A stretch of DNA of 64,000 nt from a candidate division FCPU426 bacterium (GTDB lineage: Bacteria; Oederibacteriota; Muellerivitia; Muellerivitales; Muellerivitaceae), in assembly GCA_963847625.1 (NCBI GenBank), contig CAWKAR010000039.1, positions 64,001-128,000 of the forward strand, written 5' to 3'. Numbering within the stretch: the stretch's first letter is position 1; every line of letters starts with the position of its first letter. Below, one piece after another: positions 20,618-54,697 of this stretch. Position numbers and translations under genes: made by a program. The notes beneath the pieces were generated by a model. That model ran no database searches and was not told the origin of the DNA. It was given only the letters and a program-made list of their open reading frames with translations.

Positions 20618-23053
20618 ATGAAATTACTCAAATTCAAGATCATTTTCTCCACGTTAATTCTGCTTGCTTGGCCTTTGTTTCTGAACGCCCAAACCCAGCC
20701 GGCTACCATTACGATCAACTCGGCTTCAACCATCACCTCATTCGTTCCCATCAGCATTTTTGGAAACAACACGGCCTATTGGACGAATAACGGTGATGAC
20801 ATGTCTGTGCAGCCTTTGGTCCAGGCGGTGGGAAATTATTTCATACGATATCCAGGCGGTTCCTCCTCGGATATTTTCCATTGGAACGGATCGGGAACTT
20901 TTAATTCCAACGGTTATTGGATTCCCAGCGGAACCACTTATGCTCCTGGTCATCAATGTAATCAAACTTACGCGGGAACAACTGCATCCAATGCCGGGGG
21001 TTATTCCAATATAACAGACGGAGATATCTCCACGACCTGGCTTTCTAACGTGGACACGGATTTACCAAACCACCAGTGGGTCCAGCTTTCCGCAGGGATT
21101 CAAGTGAACGCCATTACCATTGTCTGGGGTAACCCTTACGCCACATCATTTCAAATTCAATACTATAACGGCTGGCCTTGGAGCAATAGCGTCTTGGAAA
21201 GTGCATGGTCATCAGTGGTGACTATGACGGGCACCGGGGGAACTCAGGGGGTGACTTTTGCCCCCATTTCCCCTCAATATATCCGCATCCTCATGACTGT
21301 CTCTTCGGGGCCGGTGACGGCCAACTTGGGTTCGGTGACGGTCATCGGCCCCGCTTACGCCATCGCTGAGGCGTCTTTATATAATGGGACGACTTTAGTT
21401 TCCTCGAGCAATACCCAGGTTTGGGTTTCCAGTACAGATCCCGCTTCCAGCAACGGCTGGCAACCTTCCTTCGACTTTGAATCCTTCATGTCCTATATGA
21501 ACGCCTTCGGCACCAACCTGAAAGCTATTCCCATCATCACCGTCAATTTTGGGACCGGAACACCGGCCGAGGCGGCCTCCTGGGTTTATTACGCCAATAA
21601 AGTGGCGCATCCACAATACCCGAACTGGGCCGGCTGCCATTACTGGCAGATCGGCAACGAGGACGAAGGTTTCTGGGAGGCGGGTGGGCCTATTCCCACT
21701 CAGGATTATGTCAGGCGTTATATCGAGTATTACGACGCCATGAAGGCCGTGGATTCGAGCATCATTATCACGGGCCCGGTGGCAGGAGGATTCAATACGC
21801 CATCCAATATGTACGATGGAAACGGTGTGATGCAGGATTTCATCAATATTTTAAAAGTGAAAGGAAAACTTGATCATCTCAACGCCATCGATTTCCATTG
21901 GTATCCCGAGGGAGGCAGCTATACCGATGCCAGCGCCTTGGCCAGCACCTCCTCCTTGGATTCTTATCCGGGGCAATTGAACGGCTGGCTTTCAAACGCG
22001 GGTATTGTCAGTCCATCCGCCGTGCCGGTGATGATGACCGAATACAACGTCGATCCTGGGAATGAAAATTTCCAGGTCCAGTTGGGGGACGGCCTTTGGC
22101 TGGCCGACGCCTTGGGACATTTCATCACGGACTTCGGGAGCCGCGGTTACTGCAACCTTTGGGACACCTTGAATGGGGGAAATAACGACGGGGATTACTA
22201 CATAACCGCTGGTGATTTAGGATACCTGGACGCGGCCTATAACTATGCACCGCGCGCTACCTATTGGGCCATGAAAATGATGACCAACGATTGGGCTATC
22301 CCTGGTGATACCAATGCCCATCAACTGATTACAGCCAACAGCAGTACTGCGTCCCTCGCGGCTTACGCGGACTATCGCCCTGATAGCATCATTTCGTTGG
22401 TGGTGGTCAATAAAGACCCGAGCAACTTTTATAATACATGGGTGACAGGCATCCCTTACACCCCCAACGCCACCGCCGATGAGTGGACCTTCGATTCCAC
22501 CAATTACCAGTGGGTGATCACCGGGTCAACGCCATACCACGCCACGCCGAATACGGCCCCGACTACCCTCACATTAAGCGGGGTAGCCAGCTCATTCCCT
22601 GTCACTTTTGGGCCTTATTCTATAACGGTTTTGCAGATTAACCATCCAGCCACTTCTACGCCTACCTTTACTCCACCCCCCTGTACCGACGGTTCCGGAC
22701 ACACTTGTACTCCCACCAATACCCCCACCGCGACGATCACGCCCACTCCCACGGCGACGGTTACGAATCTCAATGTTCTTTTTCCCAACCCTATTCGGGA
22801 CCAAACACCCCTGAACTTTTATTACCATTTGGATTCCAACAATGACTGGGTGAAAGTCAAAATATTCACGACTTCATTCAGAAAAATTTACGAGCAGGAC
22901 AGCTTGCCGTTTAAACAAGGAACACACCCTTACCAGCTGAATTGGGCCCAATCGGGATTAAACCCAGCCAATGGACTTTATTATGTTGTTTTGGACCGGC
23001 TAAATGGCGGTCATGAGAGCCTCCAGATCATGAAACTTCTCATCTTTCGCTAA
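20618..23053 (+). CDS. Secreted clan GH-A glycoside hydrolase (GH44/GH51/GH39-like) with an inserted F5/8 discoidin domain, PT linker and T9SS-like C-terminal domain
   Basis: Signal peptide, RYPGGSSSD, YWQIGNE (acid/base), VMMTEYN (nucleophile), DGDISTTWLS discoidin segment, TPTxTPT repeats, C-terminal FPNP...NGLYYVVL. Confidence 0.75.
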   Translation: MKLLKFKIIFSTLILLAWPLFLNAQTQPATITINSASTITSFVPISIFGNNTAYWTNNGDDMSVQPLVQAVGNYFIRYPGGSSSDIFHWNGSGTFNSNGYWIPSGTTYAPGHQCNQTYAGTTASNAGGYSNITDGDISTTWLSNVDTDLPNHQWVQLSAGIQVNAITIVWGNPYATSFQIQYYNGWPWSNSVLESAWSSVVTMTGTGGTQGVTFAPISPQYIRILMTVSSGPVTANLGSVTVIGPAYAIAEASLYNGTTLVSSSNTQVWVSSTDPASSNGWQPSFDFESFMSYMNAFGTNLKAIPIITVNFGTGTPAEAASWVYYANKVAHPQYPNWAGCHYWQIGNEDEGFWEAGGPIPTQDYVRRYIEYYDAMKAVDSSIIITGPVAGGFNTPSNMYDGNGVMQDFINILKVKGKLDHLNAIDFHWYPEGGSYTDASALASTSSLDSYPGQLNGWLSNAGIVSPSAVPVMMTEYNVDPGNENFQVQLGDGLWLADALGHFITDFGSRGYCNLWDTLNGGNNDGDYYITAGDLGYLDAAYNYAPRATYWAMKMMTNDWAIPGDTNAHQLITANSSTASLAAYADYRPDSIISLVVVNKDPSNFYNTWVTGIPYTPNATADEWTFDSTNYQWVITGSTPYHATPNTAPTTLTLSGVASSFPVTFGPYSITVLQINHPATSTPTFTPPPCTDGSGHTCTPTNTPTATITPTPTATVTNLNVLFPNPIRDQTPLNFYYHLDSNNDWVKVKIFTTSFRKIYEQDSLPFKQGTHPYQLNWAQSGLNPANGLYYVVLDRLNGGHESLQIMKLLIFR

Positions 23054-44934: not shown

Positions 44935-45017
44935 GCCTTTTTGAAAATAAATCCACTGAATCTTAAGGAGTGAAGCTTTTTTAGACTGTAATTTTTAACT
45001 TTGGGGTTTGACTATGG

Positions 45018-45058
45018 GTGTAAAATAAATTTACACTTGATCATTAACTTTTTACTAT
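45018..45058 (+). promoter_or_regulatory. TGT-N11-ACA palindrome overlapping a sigma70 promoter of the EBP operon
   Basis: GTGTAAA-ATAAA-TTTACAC (45018-45036) overlaps TTTACA-17 nt-TACTAT (45030-45058). Confidence 0.6.
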
Positions 45059-45105
45059 AAGTTAATTTTTTTAGGCACTGATAGGGGTTCAAGTTGAAAA
45101 AAACC

Positions 45106-45474
45106 ATGTTAAAAAAAGAAGATTGGGGGGGGTTAACCATCGTGGCCCTCTTGGCGGCTTACGTTTTTCCGCCTTATTTCGTCTATCTCATGACAATGGC
45201 GGCCTTGACCGAATTCGCCCACCTCTGGACCACCCGTCTTTCCCGCGTCGACCAGGAAAAATTCATCGCTTTCGAGAAGGAATTCCGAAAGGGGTATCAA
45301 TTAGAAAAGGCCGGTAAACTGAAAGATGCTATTCAGTGGTACCAGAAACTCGAAACACGGTATGCCGACCTTCCTCAGGCGGGAAAACTAGCCACCCTGC
45401 AAATCCGGAAATTAACCCAGAAAAAAGGTGCAAAGAATTTTTTGCCCCCGCGAAACCCCAAGCCACCGGAGTAA
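45106..45474 (+). CDS. Small membrane protein with a TPR-like helix pair
   Basis: Hydrophobic N-terminus; FRKGYQLEKAGKLKDAIQWY; 3 nt upstream of the EBP gene. Start is ATG 45106 or TTG 45094. Confidence 0.6.
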   Translation: MLKKEDWGGLTIVALLAAYVFPPYFVYLMTMAALTEFAHLWTTRLSRVDQEKFIAFEKEFRKGYQLEKAGKLKDAIQWYQKLETRYADLPQAGKLATLQIRKLTQKKGAKNFLPPRNPKPPE

Positions 45475-45477
45475 ATC

Positions 45478-47358
45478 ATGGACCCTATCGCCTGCCGGGA
45501 ATGCGGATTTACCATGGAACCTCAAAACAGGTTTTGCGCCATTTGCGGTGTAGCCCATGAGGAAATCGAAACAGGAACACGGGAAGGGATGGAGGCTTTT
45601 GAACAGGGGGAATACGAGAAGGCCCTTCAACTTTTCAAAATCACCGCCAAAAAACAACCGTTCAGCGTATTTGCCCTTCGGGACGTGGGTCACGCGGCCT
45701 TTCATCTCCAGGATTTCAACCTCGCCCTGGAATATTATGAGAAAGCGCTCCAACTCCATAAAAGCCTCTTGGATGTCCATTTCAACCTGGGGCTCATCCA
45801 TTTGCAACGGGGCCACGTTAACGATGCGGCTTTTTGCTTCTTGGAAACGCTCCATCTCATCCATCCCTTGACCCCCGGGGCTTATTACCTGGGATTATTT
45901 CATAGCTCGGAAAGCCTTACTTTCCAATGCCGGTTGAACCTGGGAAATCTTTTCAAGGAAAGGGGTGAATTGGAAAAGGCTCTAGAGCAATACCGCCTCG
46001 TCGTGGCCCTCAACCCCAAAAACGTTCTAGCGCTTGGAAGTTTGGGCGACTGTCTCATCGCGCTGGAACAATATGACCAAGCCATCGGAACGTATAAAAA
46101 AGCGATCCGTGTCCTTCCGGACGGAGAGGAGAAGCTAAAACTTCAAAACGACCTGGGTGTTTCCTATTTCAAGAAGGGCGACCTCGAAAGGGCGATTAAC
46201 GAATTCAAGAACATCCTCAAGAAGGACCCGGGACACGTAAACGCCGTTTATAACCTGGGACAGCTCTATTACCACGAAGGTTTGACGGGAAGGATGAAAG
46301 AGGATTACGCGGATTTCGTCAAGTCCTCCAAAGACGCAGCCTCCATTCTTTTTTCCATTTCCAAGTCCATGGTTTCAGTGGCCGCATCCGAGAAAGGCCC
46401 GCAGATAGAGGAAACCAATCTCATCGGCAATAGTCTTCCCATGCGTAAAATACAAGAACTGATCAAACGCGCGGCAGCCAGCGACGCCACCGTGTTGATT
46501 TTAGGGGAGAATGGGACAGGGAAGGAACTTGTTGCCCGGGCCATCCATCAGCAATCCGGAAGACACGATAAACCGTTTCTCCCCATCGCTTGCGCCGCTT
46601 TAAGTGAATCCCTCCTGGAAAGCGAACTTTTCGGTCATGAGCAGGGCTCTTTCACCGGGGCCATCGGTCAGAAAATGGGAAAATTCGAGGTAGCCGATAA
46701 AGGGACTGTTTTCCTGGATGAGATCGGCGATATCTCCCTTGCCACCCAGGTCAAACTTCTCCGTGTACTCCAGGAACGGGAATTTCAGCGGGTGGGCGGG
46801 AATGAGACGCTCAAAGTCAATATCCGGGTCATCTGCGCCACCAACCGCGATTTGAAAGAAGCGATACAATCCGGCAAGTTTCGAGAGGATCTTTTCTACC
46901 GGCTGAACGTGATCGTGATTGATATGCCTCCGTTACGGGAAAGGGAAGGAGACTTGATTCTGCTCATCCGGTATTTCCTGGAGCGCATGAGGGTCAAGAA
47001 ACCCAACCGGTTTGAGGGAGTATCCGCCAAGGCTTTGGAGATCATGCAGCGTCACCGCTGGCCGGGGAATGTGCGGGAATTGGAAAACGTGATTGAAAGG
47101 ATCGTGACCCTGAATGACGACGTATTGATTCAACCGGAACATTTACCTTCGGAAATTACCAATTTTGATTCCCGTCTTTCCTTTTTCACCCAAACCTTGC
47201 CGAACGTGGGAATTTTGGAATCGGTGGAAAAAGACATCATTTTAAGGATACTGAAGGAATACCGTTTTAACAAGAAACAGGCGGCCAATAAATTGGGGAT
47301 TAGCCGGCCCACTCTTTATCAAAAAATGCGAAAATATGGGATTGTTGTGAAAAAATGA
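45478..47358 (+). CDS. sigma54-dependent enhancer-binding protein with N-terminal zinc ribbon and TPR sensor region
   Basis: CRECG...CAICG, multiple TPRs, [39 protein letters not shown], Fis-type HTH ([16 protein letters not shown]). Confidence 0.92.
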
Positions 47359-47367
47359 AGAAGAGAG

Positions 47368-47413
47368 TGTAAGATTTTAATACATATTAACTAAATTGTA
47401 AAAATACTTAACA
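47368..47413. promoter_or_regulatory. Two putative upstream activating sites, TGT-N11-ACA
   Basis: TGTAAGATTTTAATACA (47368-47384) and TGTAAAAATACTTAACA (47397-47413), centred about -127 and -98 from the predicted +1. Confidence 0.65.
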
Positions 47414-47476
47414 CTTGAAAGCGATTTATTATTTCAATAATCCTTAATTTTAAAGGTTTTTTTCCTTTATTAGATC

Positions 47477-47492
47477 TGGCACAGACCTTGCT
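47477..47492 (+). promoter_or_regulatory. sigma54 (-24/-12) promoter
   Basis: TGGCAC-AGACC-TTGCT, an exact consensus match. Confidence 0.88.
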
Positions 47493-47502
47493 TTTAAAAG
47501 CA

Positions 47503-47597
47503 ATAGCTGGCTTTAACCGGCTGGCTTTCAAACGAATCAACATTAAAACACTCACCTCCTAAAGAGCCTCGGTTCGACCCAACCGGGGCTTTTTTTT
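47503..47597 (+). ncRNA. Putative sigma54-dependent small RNA with an anti-Shine-Dalgarno motif
   Basis: Lies between the sigma54 promoter and a terminator, with no ATG in the interval. 5' hairpin AGCTGG/CCGGCT, then single-stranded ...CACTCACCTCCT, then terminator AGCCTCGGTT-CGACCC-AACCGGGGCT-T7. Confidence 0.72.
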
Positions 47598-47812
47598 GCC
47601 TAAAATCATAAATTTCCCGGTCATCCAAAATCGGGGAGAGCCTTACCTTGTGTTATATTGCCCGGCAACAGTCCTAGCTCTTAACCCAAAGTTGAAAGTT
47701 CCAATCGTCCTATCAAACTTGTGAAAATCGGACGTATGGTTCATTCCCTTTGCGAAAACTTTAAATTTTTAACTTTTTTGCGTTAAATCCCAATATTCCT
47801 AACGTTTGGAGG

Positions 47813-48916
47813 TTGTCCCTGAACGCCTATTGGATCGTCTTTCTTACCGCTTTCGTCTTGGCTATAGGATTGACCCCCCTATTTCGAAAGATCGCCCTGA
47901 GGTCCCAGTTTTTGGATACCCCCTTGGGACAGCTCAAAAAACACACAGCGCCGGTTCCCTATTTAGGGGGGCTGGCAGTTTATTTCTCCTTTTTGCTGGC
48001 CATCCTGGGGGCCCTGGTTCTCGCTCCGCCTCCTGACGGATCCCGCATCCTGGCTCTCCTGGCGGGGGGAACGGTCATGGCCTTGATGGGTTTAGTGGAC
48101 GACCTTTTTTCCCTATCCCCCGCTGTCAAATTCCTTTTTGAATTTCTGGCTGCCAGCCTACTGGTCCTTTTCGGCGTCAAACTGGAATTTCTGCCAAGTC
48201 ATCCCATCTTGGGTTATGCGCTGACCCTTATCTGGATCGTGGCGGTCACCAATGCTGTCAATTTAATCGATATCATGGACGGCTTGGCAGGGGGAATCTC
48301 CTTCATTGCTTGCGCGGGATTCGTTTTCGTGCCGTTCCTTGGCGTGCAAAGCTATGTCCGCCTGACGGCCGCCGCACTGGGCGGAAGCGTCCTAGGTTTC
48401 TTGCCGTATAACTTCCAGCCCGCGCGCATATATATGGGAGACTCGGGAGCCCTATTTCTGGGATTCATGCTCGCTGGGATCGCACTAGGGCACGGGTATA
48501 CCCAAGTGAACGTGGTCGCCCTTTGCGGGCCGCTCCTTGTTCTGGGCATACCCCTTTACGACACCGCCCTGGTCATGGCGCTTCGTTTTTTGAAGGGGCG
48601 TTCGATGTTTAGGGGCTCCAACGACCATTTGGCCCTGCGTTTAAGACGCTTGGGCTTAACCGTCAAGCAAACGGTCCTAAGCCTTTGGACTCTCTCCCTT
48701 TTACTGGCGTGCGGAGCCGCCTTGTTGGTCCGCTTTTCCGAGAAAAGGGCCCTGGCCCTCATGGTTCTATTCTTCTTCCTGACTTTGGTTTTCACTTTTT
48801 TCATTTCCAGCGTGCCTGTGGATGAGGGGTTGAAGAAAATCCGGGAAAACCCTTTCCGAGTGTGGCTGGAACCATCCCTGGTTGGAAAATCCGCCAAACC
48901 CAGGAAAAAGAAGTGA
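47813..48916 (+). CDS. Undecaprenyl-phosphate GlcNAc-1-phosphate transferase (WecA/TagO, MraY family)
   Basis: PYLGGLA, GLVDD, NAVNLIDIMDGLA, YMGDSGA; multiple transmembrane segments. Confidence 0.88.
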   Translation: MSLNAYWIVFLTAFVLAIGLTPLFRKIALRSQFLDTPLGQLKKHTAPVPYLGGLAVYFSFLLAILGALVLAPPPDGSRILALLAGGTVMALMGLVDDLFSLSPAVKFLFEFLAASLLVLFGVKLEFLPSHPILGYALTLIWIVAVTNAVNLIDIMDGLAGGISFIACAGFVFVPFLGVQSYVRLTAAALGGSVLGFLPYNFQPARIYMGDSGALFLGFMLAGIALGHGYTQVNVVALCGPLLVLGIPLYDTALVMALRFLKGRSMFRGSNDHLALRLRRLGLTVKQTVLSLWTLSLLLACGAALLVRFSEKRALALMVLFFFLTLVFTFFISSVPVDEGLKKIRENPFRVWLEPSLVGKSAKPRKKK

Positions 48917-48918
48917 GG

Positions 48919-50223
48919 ATGAAGACCCTCATCATCGGCGGGGGGGTGGCGGGGCTTTCCTGCGCAAGGACCCTGGCCGAGGCATCCAGCCCCTATCTCC
49001 TGGCTGAAAAAGAAAATGAATTAGGCGGCCTTTGCCGCACGGTTTTCACCCGTGGTTTTACATTCGATTACACCGGACACTTTCTTCATTTTCAAAAGCC
49101 CGGGATCGAGAAATGGGTCTTGAGTTTGGTGGACCGTCCCTTGCGAAAAAGATACCGGCACGCTGCCATCTATAGCCAAGGAATCTACAGCGAATATCCC
49201 TACCAGGAAAACAACGCCGGCCTGCCTTCCTCCACGGTTCGAGAGAATGTTTTGGGTGCCCTGGAATCCGTTCTCCACCGGCGCTTCGGGGGATGGGACT
49301 TGGAGCGGACCTGGGATTTCAAGTCCTGGTGTCTTCGGGCTTTCGGAAAGGGTGTTTCTGGGAATTTCATGTTTCCTTACAACGAGAAACTTTGGAAATT
49401 CCCCCTGGGAAAACTTTCCACCCTTTGGATGGGCCGTTTTGTCCCCTTCCCCCGGGTTTCTCGGGTGATTCAGGGGGCGTTGAAGCGCCAGCCTTCCGTC
49501 GCGGGTTACAACGCGACCTTTCTTTATCCCGAAGAAGGCGGTATTTCCTTGCTTCCGCACTCTATCGCGCGCGGGTTGCCCCGCTTGTGGACCCGAATGG
49601 AGTTGAATGGGCTAGATCTCGAAAAACACAAGGCCACTTTCGCTCCGGGATTGGAATTAGATTATGATTACCTGGTTTCCAGCCTACCCTTGCCACTGTT
49701 GGCGGCCTTGACGCGTGGTCTGCCCTTCCAACTTCGAAAGGCCGCATACCGTCTCAAAGCCACTTCCGTCTATAACATCAATTACGGGGTCCGGGGTTCC
49801 CAACCCATTCCCTATAGTTGGGTTTATTTTCCGGAAAAAGAGTTTGGGTTCCACCGGGCCGGCTCCGTGAGCGCCTGCGTGCCCGGTATGGCACCGAAGG
49901 GCCACTTTTCCCTTTATGTGGAGTTTTCCTACCGCGGGGGGAAACCTGACGCGAAGGCTCTGGGCCGGCATGCCGTGGAAAAACTCATCAAACTGAAATG
50001 GATTCGTTCCCAGCGGGAAATAGTTGTACGAGTGGATCTCAACCTGCCTGGAGCCTATGTGATTTATGACCAAGGCCGGAAGGACACGGTGAGTTGCTTG
50101 CTGAAATATTATCGGAAGAAAGGCGTCTTTTCGGTAGGCCGGTACGGGCGCTGGGAATATGGAACCATGGAATCCGCGATGGAACAGGGAATGGAGGCCG
50201 CCCGGACGATCCTGGGGAATTAA
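48919..50223 (+). CDS. FAD-dependent oxidoreductase (protoporphyrinogen oxidase/UDP-Galp mutase-like)
   Basis: IIGGGVAGLS, GGLCRT, FDYTGHFLH, GRYGRWEY. Confidence 0.8.
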   Translation: MKTLIIGGGVAGLSCARTLAEASSPYLLAEKENELGGLCRTVFTRGFTFDYTGHFLHFQKPGIEKWVLSLVDRPLRKRYRHAAIYSQGIYSEYPYQENNAGLPSSTVRENVLGALESVLHRRFGGWDLERTWDFKSWCLRAFGKGVSGNFMFPYNEKLWKFPLGKLSTLWMGRFVPFPRVSRVIQGALKRQPSVAGYNATFLYPEEGGISLLPHSIARGLPRLWTRMELNGLDLEKHKATFAPGLELDYDYLVSSLPLPLLAALTRGLPFQLRKAAYRLKATSVYNINYGVRGSQPIPYSWVYFPEKEFGFHRAGSVSACVPGMAPKGHFSLYVEFSYRGGKPDAKALGRHAVEKLIKLKWIRSQREIVVRVDLNLPGAYVIYDQGRKDTVSCLLKYYRKKGVFSVGRYGRWEYGTMESAMEQGMEAARTILGN

Positions 50224-54622: not shown

Positions 54623-54697
54623 TGGGGCGTCGACAAGTGGTAAGTCACCAGCCTTTGGAGCTGGCATTCGTAGGTTCGAATCCTACCGCCCCAGCCA
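54623..54697 (+). tRNA. tRNA-Gln (anticodon TTG)
   Basis: Acceptor TGGGGCG/CGCCCCA, anticodon arm CCAGC-CTTTGGA-GCTGG, T-loop GGTTCGAATCC, encoded CCA. Confidence 0.97.

Follow-up and report, generated by a model that had tools for sequence, protein, structure and literature searches.

The subject of this analysis is a regulatory module in a stretch of 64,000 nucleotides (the window; positions 64,001 to 128,000 of contig CAWKAR010000039.1) from a candidate division FCPU426 bacterium, whose genome is referred to as G000, other G numbers denoting the genomes of relatives. In this 64-kb window, pnp and its terminator are followed by a palindrome, a gene for a small protein, a gene for a sigma-54 activator with tetratricopeptide repeats (TPRs), two activator sites, a sigma-54 promoter and a small RNA (sRNA), whose linker is, as judged by base complementarity, antisense to the Shine-Dalgarno (SD) sequence and the opening codons of type IV pilin genes that are not linked to the module. 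A first-pass annotation, made from the letters of the DNA, had listed the palindrome, the small protein, the zinc-ribbon/TPR/AAA+/helix-turn-helix (HTH) activator, two TGT-N11-ACA sites and the promoter, and all of them were recovered where it had placed them. The activator gene (45478-47358, plus strand) encodes a bacterial enhancer-binding protein of 626 aa, which consists of a zinc ribbon (CxxC-x10-CxxC, residues 6-23), a TPR array (about residues 40-290), a sigma-54 AAA+ domain (315-562) and a Fis-type HTH domain (580-620). The AAA+ domain matched Sigma54_activat (PF00158, E 9e-72, 240.6 bits), HTH_8 was matched as well, and Walker A/B, the arginine finger and sensor II are present (GENGTGKE at 343-350, LDEIG at 413-417, REDLFYRL at 469-476 and WPGNVREL at 528-535). 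The sigma-54 contact loop reads GSFTGA (390-395), GAFTGA being the form in most other families, and its G, F, T, G and A are invariant across 59 aligned homologues. In agreement with the first-pass annotation, no receiver domain appeared among the best 25 of 56 Pfam families, and the rpoN gene, on which its sigma-54 proposal depended, was found in the genome. Taking the AAA+ domain, the contact loop, the HTH domain, rpoN and the promoter with its sites together, the protein is a sigma-54 enhancer-binding protein, for which ATP-dependent activation is predicted. Among the other genomes of the family, 23 of 24 gave a full-length orthologue (one of these runs into a contig end), as did the single genome of the sister family (1/1) and 5 of 15 more distant ones; the activator tree is poorly resolved, with only 8 of 24 inner branches well supported.

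Just 3 nt before the activator gene lies a 126-codon open reading frame (ORF) for the small protein (45094-45474, plus strand), a putative membrane partner with a hydropathy peak of 1.8. Its predicted model (pLDDT 74) shows a hydrophobic helical hairpin with an invariant FPPYF at the turn, then two TPR-like helices and a tail that is basic. The protein is present in 60 of 99 genomes of the phylum. No Pfam, NCBIfam, PHROG or PADLOC family was reached at cut-off and no Foldseek match at E<=0.001; the atlas matches are hypothetical or TPR clusters, and every named one among its 178 homologues is hypothetical. Runs of complex prediction for the small protein with activator residues 1-312 scored 0.48, 0.02 and 0.00; they disagree and were used neither way. 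Considering the gene linkage and co-retention, the TPRs of the activator may sense a protein signal via the membrane protein.

The sigma-54 promoter (-24/-12 type, TGGCAC-N5-TTGCT, 47477-47492, plus strand) is the single match of its kind in the window, and there are six strict matches in the 4.43-Mb genome. The usual -24/-12 geometry places the transcription start near 47503, which is the predicted +1. Upstream of it are two candidate activator sites identified as matches to the strandless TGT-N11-ACA motif (47368-47384 and 47397-47413). Such paired sites are 28-31 bp apart in all 22 promoter regions listed, near-matches counted, and the distance from the second site to the promoter changes in steps of about 10 bp across orthologues (80, 88-90 and 98-102), which fits the expectation for looping activation. 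The letters also reveal an A/T-rich tract, without strand, between sites and promoter (47446-47462), which, by its likeness to the consensus, may be a bend site of the integration host factor (IHF) type; five genes of the HU/IHF family are present in the genome. The window holds seven TGT-N11-ACA sites, three of them flanking the pair of small gene and activator gene. The third of these is the strandless palindrome 5' of the pair (45018-45036, 7-bp arms), which is conserved exactly in 13 of 24 orthologous loci and with one mismatch in 8 more. Since the palindrome is another copy of the site upstream of the gene pair, autoregulation is suggested, and it is probably the autoregulation site. The first-pass annotation had described it as lying over a sigma70 promoter; the palindrome is real, whereas the sigma70 call is weak, because the candidate (45030-45058, plus strand) has 9 of 12 matches, an alternative begins at 45008, and sigma70-like sites number 7 per 6 kb against 4.8 expected, a count not above chance.

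The sRNA (about 95 nt, 47503-47597, plus strand) was delimited by folding and conservation, and consists of a 5' hairpin, an unpaired linker of about 35 nt and an intrinsic terminator. The region 47503-47600 folds into this hairpin-linker-terminator form with a z score of -3.3, none of 200 shuffles being as stable, and no conserved ORF exists on either strand, which bears out the non-coding unit with terminator proposed at first. The 5' hairpin (47505-47526, plus strand) varies in sequence, and four of its five pairs have changed on both sides among 22 sequences. The terminator (47563-47597, plus strand; -19.6 kcal/mol, z -3.8) has a conserved GACCC loop and a U8 tail, with 93% of cells paired, and was not listed by a consensus terminator scan; in the named-structure counts, whose control ignores kinship, 89.7% of cells are paired. 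Two elements of the plus strand stand out between the hairpin and the terminator. One is a seed of 16 nt (47524-47539), exactly complementary to a pilin mRNA over a stretch that opens with the start codon and reaches into codon 6; the other is the anti-SD element CUCACCUCCU (47551-47560), whose unpaired probability is 1.0. For locating copies, and solely for that, we used a covariance model trained on 22 of them with an imperfect automatic structure of 10 pairs. Of 24 family genomes, 23 gave a strong single copy, and so did the one sister-family genome (1/1); among other families the model gave none in 13 genomes and only weak matches in two more (E 0.001-0.09), which were taken as noise. Six further family genomes have one copy each, bringing the family to 30 of 31 genomes with G000 included, and the missing genome is 63% complete; ten of the copies are outside the training set. 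Judged from these searches, the sRNA is the output of the module in a single order of the phylum. With promoter, upstream sites and terminator also kept, the idea of a sigma-54 regulatory sRNA conserved near activator orthologues has held up, and of the refuting conditions set in the first-pass annotation, none that can be examined by computation came true. In four genomes an insertion or a contig break lies between the activator and the sRNA, and the promoter and at least one upstream site are retained there; unrelated DNA between the activator stop codon and the upstream sites was seen in L005, L007 and L010 (G021, G002 and G019). For the sRNA, no Rfam family reached its gathering score, whether in the window or in any of 19 related loci.

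A reading of the opposite strand was also considered, in which the conserved unit is a mini-gene on the minus strand that has a strong ribosome-binding site and codes for a peptide resembling a pilin leader (50-54 aa here), while the RNA of the plus strand either regulates it as an antisense transcript or is a by-product. An SD-led minus-strand ORF at 47391-47555 does start like a pilin leader; however, across 21 copies the longest antisense ORF ranges from 12 to 62 codons, frames and starts shift, and nothing is common past the pilin-like start, while the promoter and the U-tail both have plus-strand polarity. We therefore rejected the ORF as a real gene, and hold the mini-gene to be barely credible.

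A BLAST search of G000 with its own sRNA turned up an exact 16-nt match on contig C57, complementary to the mRNA of a type IV pilin (G000:C57:93141-93596, minus strand), and CUCACCUCCU also pairs with the ribosome-binding site of this gene. The first-pass annotation, which named no target, had supposed a self-contained circuit; this does not hold, because the target is an unlinked family of pilin mRNAs; five close pilin paralogues are spread over four contigs of the genome. The C57 pilin scores 36.3 against a cut-off of 16.3 for TIGR02532 and 45.5 for GspG, below the cut-off of 88.85, and has a class III signal peptide (GFxxxE) with a short basic leader. Its closest solved structures in the PDB are major type IV pilins of Geobacter and others, and the genome contains PilB/PilT-type ATPases and two secretins. 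When 3946 start regions of G000 were ranked by duplex energy, with gene starts crudely called and the accessibility correction made on the best 500, the C57 pilin was first (rank 1/3946, -33.9 kcal/mol, z -4.5), and the other four paralogues had raw ranks of 17, 26, 260 and 279. After correction for accessibility, pilins took ranks 1, 2 and 4 (-21.1, -18.8 and -14.1), the best non-pilin stood at -14.8, and the remaining two pilins were at ranks 51 and 61. None of 2000 shuffled linkers reached the observed pairing energy. By these predicted energies, three of the five pilin paralogues are good targets. The start region of rpsP (G000:C16:51084-51332, minus strand), which encodes Ile-Arg-Leu-Lys, can form a duplex with the seed as well (rank 13 at a raw -28.0 kcal/mol) and is outside the top 15 once corrected for accessibility. 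A 17-nt match of the sRNA at window position 21982 was set aside as chance, since it is sense to a coding gene and cannot pair with that mRNA, and an 18-nt match of anti-SD type was seen at C39:55194.

Several further observations concern the pilin genes. Pilins of a second class, whose leader is longer, have no seed match (G000:C49:1396-1857 and its equivalents in relatives) and often have a strong GAGGTGAG-type site pairing with the anti-SD element; going by this pairing, the class may be a weaker target of the sRNA. Two pilin paralogues have a near-identical upstream region of about 120 nt with a GC-rich inverted repeat (G000:C57:93597-93720 and C63:13225-13348), which at C57 overlaps the start of a divergent gene for a 111-aa TPR protein; Rfam gave no match at that C57 locus. 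A PilT-family gene seemingly split into two ORFs lies beside an intact one (G000:C24:10688-11720).

Further evidence for the target came from co-variation. Every sRNA was scored against the pilin start regions of every genome, and own pairs were compared with swapped pairs under a permutation null, G005, in which no pilin start was found, being left out of the matrix. Own pairs beat swapped ones by 4.66 kcal/mol in a 30 x 30 matrix (null standard deviation 0.63; equalled by none of 50000 permutations; the diagonal value is negative for 27 of the 30 genomes), and the own-pair advantage was -4.97 kcal/mol with 20 genomes, -4.67 with 24, and -5.06 with one genome per genus (n=16; 0 of 20000 permutations). 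Control start regions gave -0.5 for the activator, -0.94 for the small protein and +0.12 for the downstream glycosyl-transferase (3366, 1031 and 11802 of 20000, respectively). The agreement can be followed base by base. Where pilins start with Met-Phe-Arg (G001, an Ile-to-Phe codon change), Met-Val-Arg (G004 and G020) or Met-Val-Arg-Met (G012), the sRNA holds the matching bases, and in G017 and G025 the pairing is shifted into the spacer that separates the start from the ribosome-binding site. At the third base of Leu4, which is synonymous, the sRNA matches the majority of the pilins in 17 of 18 genomes (22 were scored and 4 ties dropped) and 41 of 51 paralogues; the sole exception still forms a G-U pair, and the state switches within genera g3 and g11. 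The A state occurs at a high G+C content of third codon positions (GC3 0.71-0.86 in the 4 that were measured of the 8 such genomes), so base composition is not the cause of the Leu4 agreement, and composition bias as the source of the co-variation as a whole was rejected from the control start regions together with the GC3 data. Moreover, the six genomes added after the hypothesis had been formed favour their own pilins (ranks 1, 2, 3, 3, 4 and 11 of 30). As read from these alignments, the sRNA and the pilin start regions have changed together, lineage by lineage; with its own promoter and terminator, an accessible seed and an unlinked mRNA that co-varies with it, the element is a trans-acting base-pairing sRNA whose expression is predicted.

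Several points weigh against this. The genomes are related to one another, which makes the permutation and Fisher values look too strong, and the small-protein control is borderline (1031/20000). G000, G009 and G015 have no preference for their own pilins (+0.5, +1.1 and +0.7), an uncompensated A.C mismatch is present in the seed of G002, G016, G018 and G075, the anti-SD element is lost in G015, and the pairing region of G025 is predicted to be folded. No matching pilin was among those found in G008 (85% complete), and no pilin N-terminus was found in G005 (80% complete). In the ranking for G000, besides the crude gene starts and the two paralogues as low as 260 and 279, the raw-energy margin over the next start region is just 2 kcal/mol. 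Finally, the anti-SD part is generic, and one outgroup pilin averages -25.8 kcal/mol.

This last point touches another explanation, namely that a general anti-SD sRNA represses many mRNAs via CUCACCUCC, the pilins being only some of them. Few parts of the sRNA are as well conserved as the anti-SD element, which is unpaired in most copies, and many start regions reach -26 to -32 kcal/mol raw, including those of rpsP and an HU gene. However, the seed follows the pilin codons base by base, the top two pilins lead every non-pilin by at least 4 kcal/mol after accessibility correction, and G015 has kept the seed and lost the anti-SD element. We consider such a general repressor improbable; secondary targets of the sRNA besides the pilins are possible.

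The search for RNA chaperones bears on how the sRNA could act. Hfq (PF17209) was found in none of the 31 family genomes, 17 of which are at least 90% complete, and the control matched in 5 of 14; CsrA and ProQ were not found in G000 (94% complete), the one genome searched for them. This fits the long contiguous duplex between sRNA and pilin mRNA. It also bears on the proposal that the RNA titrates a protein in the manner of CrcZ or CsrB, or is a decoy for ribosomes or a protein, and does not act on mRNA. Decoy RNAs driven by sigma-54 do exist, and the terminator loop, which is GACCC without exception (22/22 sequences), could be a place where a protein binds. But such an RNA would not co-vary with pilin codons, and, unlike the CbrB-CrcZ and CsrB decoys, this one has no Rfam family and no cognate Hfq/Crc or CsrA was found for it (CsrA in G000 only), nor was ProQ there. 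A decoy is thus very unlikely, and pairing with pilin mRNAs is the reading we follow below.

Outside the RNA-bearing order the module has another output. Twenty loci from other families were inspected, of which 15 have the small protein, the activator, the sigma-54 promoter and then a basic ORF of 61-63 aa with a GHxG(A/S)G motif; of the rest, one has the genes and no promoter match, two are fusions, one is cut by a contig end and one is unrelated. Three genomes carry an in-frame fusion of the TPR region with the 62-aa GHxG(A/S)G protein (L200:3966-4994 in G031, L206 and L208; genus g24). In these fusion loci the AAA+ domain, the HTH domain and the promoter are gone, and the small membrane gene still precedes the fusion. 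This suggests that the small protein and the TPR region act together, because the small gene stays beside the TPR region after loss of the ATPase. The 62-aa-type ORF occurs in none of the 31 genomes of the RNA-bearing family and was not found in the sister-family genome with a single query. Because the protein form spreads wider, the sensor and the promoter are probably older, and the RNA would have replaced a protein as output in a single order. Pfam, NCBIfam and PHROG contain no family for the 62-aa protein, PDB sequences gave nothing under E 0.05, Foldseek had no match at E<=0.001, and searches for further loci with it gave nothing of use; its best fold match is of the eL20/LX type (Z 5.9, root-mean-square deviation 2.9 over 55 residues), a level that is common according to the tool, and there are 165 distant relatives beyond these loci, without context. 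In addition, the upstream repeats at the loci with the 62-aa output (L203-L222, L027-L031 and L183-L188) differ, being of GTTAAC, GTTTACA, GAGACA or TGTCCGA types. Since they differ between families, a change in the HTH specificity of the activator is suggested by these motifs.

An output swap of this kind leaves room for the view that the RNA is a non-functional relic, left by an inverted copy of a pilin start region that came to lie behind the promoter upon loss of the 62-aa gene. Its antisense strand reads as a pilin ribosome-binding site and start, and the RNA is limited to one order; such an origin is plausible. The retention of a single copy in 30 of 31 family genomes, the changes on both sides of the 5' hairpin and the lineage-specific tracking of pilins nevertheless need ongoing selection, so that the relic is largely refuted, and we give it next to no chance.

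We propose that the module is a signal-gated circuit lowering type IV pilin synthesis post-transcriptionally, which we regard as likely as far as activation and pairing are concerned. In the first step, which is very likely, the TPR activator would bind the two TGT-N11-ACA sites, whose motifs and spacing are conserved as described, and open the sigma-54 promoter. In the second, held with almost the same confidence, the sRNA would pair in trans with the pilin mRNAs, its anti-SD element covering the ribosome-binding site and its seed the start and first codons, so that translation initiation would be blocked without Hfq; here complementarity and co-variation are what was observed, and repression is what they predict. 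It is rather probable that the activator would also bind the third site before its own operon and dampen its own expression. There is an even chance that the small membrane protein would gate the activator through the TPR region. The cue would then come from the membrane side, tentatively and most plausibly pilin build-up or envelope/pilus stress, a guess prompted by an output that would reduce pilin synthesis, by a partner in the form of a membrane hairpin and by the analogy with PilS; this cue remains on the doubtful side.

A literature search at the level of abstracts, with most subscription papers and supplements outside its reach, gave no TPR-sensor activator driving an sRNA, no sigma-54 sRNA repressing pilin and nothing on regulation in this lineage, and pointed to Arp as the sole sRNA shown to repress pilin translation. 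According to the accessible part of the report, this Acinetobacter baumannii sRNA pairs with the SD sequence and first codons of the major pilin mRNA and represses its translation, is conserved among Acinetobacter species and is tied to BfmR, with RpoN and PilR not mentioned in that part (PMC12338739). The in silico pairing with SD and first codons described here is of the same kind. Going by that description, Arp, which acts on pilA in an Hfq-containing host, is set apart from the present sRNA, which has a sigma-54 promoter, a dedicated TPR activator and no Hfq found, uses an unpaired linker and matches several paralogues.

The first-pass annotation had also compared the architecture with that of LuxO and Qrr. 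The available text on this system describes LuxO as having a REC (receiver) domain under phosphorelay control and a TTGCAWWWTGCAA site, and the layout of an enhancer-binding protein with two upstream sites and a sigma-54-driven base-pairing sRNA is shared (PMC10162802). Unlike LuxO as described there, the present activator has a zinc ribbon and TPRs, a TGT-N11-ACA site and no receiver; the LuxO model covered residues 302-619 alone, with a score of 292 against a cut-off of 800. LuxO-Qrr depends on Hfq, which was found in 0/31 family genomes, and, unlike Qrr, the sRNA has no Rfam Qrr match in the window or the 19 related loci and has a pilin target. Thus, by receiver, Rfam family and Hfq the module is not a member of the LuxO-Qrr group, and of the comparison the layout stands.

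PilS senses PilA in the inner membrane and PilR activates pilA transcription through this histidine kinase, as far as the text available to us describes (PMC6058289). The present module would share with this pair a sigma-54-linked control of pilin levels, and, by analogy, a membrane protein that may report pilin; unlike the pair as described, it contains no kinase or receiver, and its output is a repressor RNA, with the logic inverted. No sigma-54 motif occurs in the 260 nt upstream of any of the five pilin genes, so direct control of the PilR type is not apparent. PspF of the phage-shock system, which acts with PspA/B/C, is, like other partner-gated activators, without a receiver and under the presumed control of a co-encoded protein that reports the membrane state, and it is autoregulated. 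The activator described here resembles it in lacking a receiver, in its presumed gating by a partner and in its putative autoregulation. PspF is without an N-terminal sensor, whereas the N-terminus here comprises about 300 aa of zinc ribbon and TPRs, and the pspF model TIGR02974 scored 294 on the activator against a cut-off of 444.

As for the surroundings of the module, the sRNA terminator is followed by a gene for a WecA/MraY-like glycosyl-phosphate transferase and then by one for a flavin-dependent oxidoreductase (window 47813-50223). The transferase is the kept downstream neighbour in most family loci; as a direct output of the promoter it was rejected, since the terminator lies in between, and it is without a pairing signal to the sRNA. 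A tRNA gene at 54623-54694 is the sole Rfam match in the window. Elsewhere in the genome, a consensus sigma-54 promoter precedes a gene for an RpoD-like sigma factor (G000:C57:45636-47374, minus strand), and this motif suggests a sigma cascade.

Taking all parts jointly, one may speculate that the module is a pilin homeostat unrelated to PilS-PilR, in which the two-helix protein responds to accumulating pilin, or to a pilus machine that is stalled or engaged by a phage, and signals without phosphorylation through the TPRs, and an Hfq-independent RNA silences the family of pilin paralogues. Elsewhere in the phylum the 62-aa protein may be an RNA-binding repressor, which would have been replaced by an RNA arising from an inverted pilin start that then co-evolved with the pilin codons. 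This whole scenario is offered as an unlikely account. For an uncultured lineage, the analysis yields from sequence alone a complete and testable regulatory path leading from a membrane protein to a surface structure, and none of its parts is too long to be reconstructed in E. coli. The base-level co-variation of a trans-acting sRNA with the codons of a paralogue family, including a synonymous site, is an unusually direct kind of target evidence, obtained here where no Hfq was found. And the swap of outputs behind a fixed sensor and promoter, which takes the form of a 62-aa protein, an RNA or a TPR fusion, would represent a rare traceable birth of an sRNA gene within an existing regulon.

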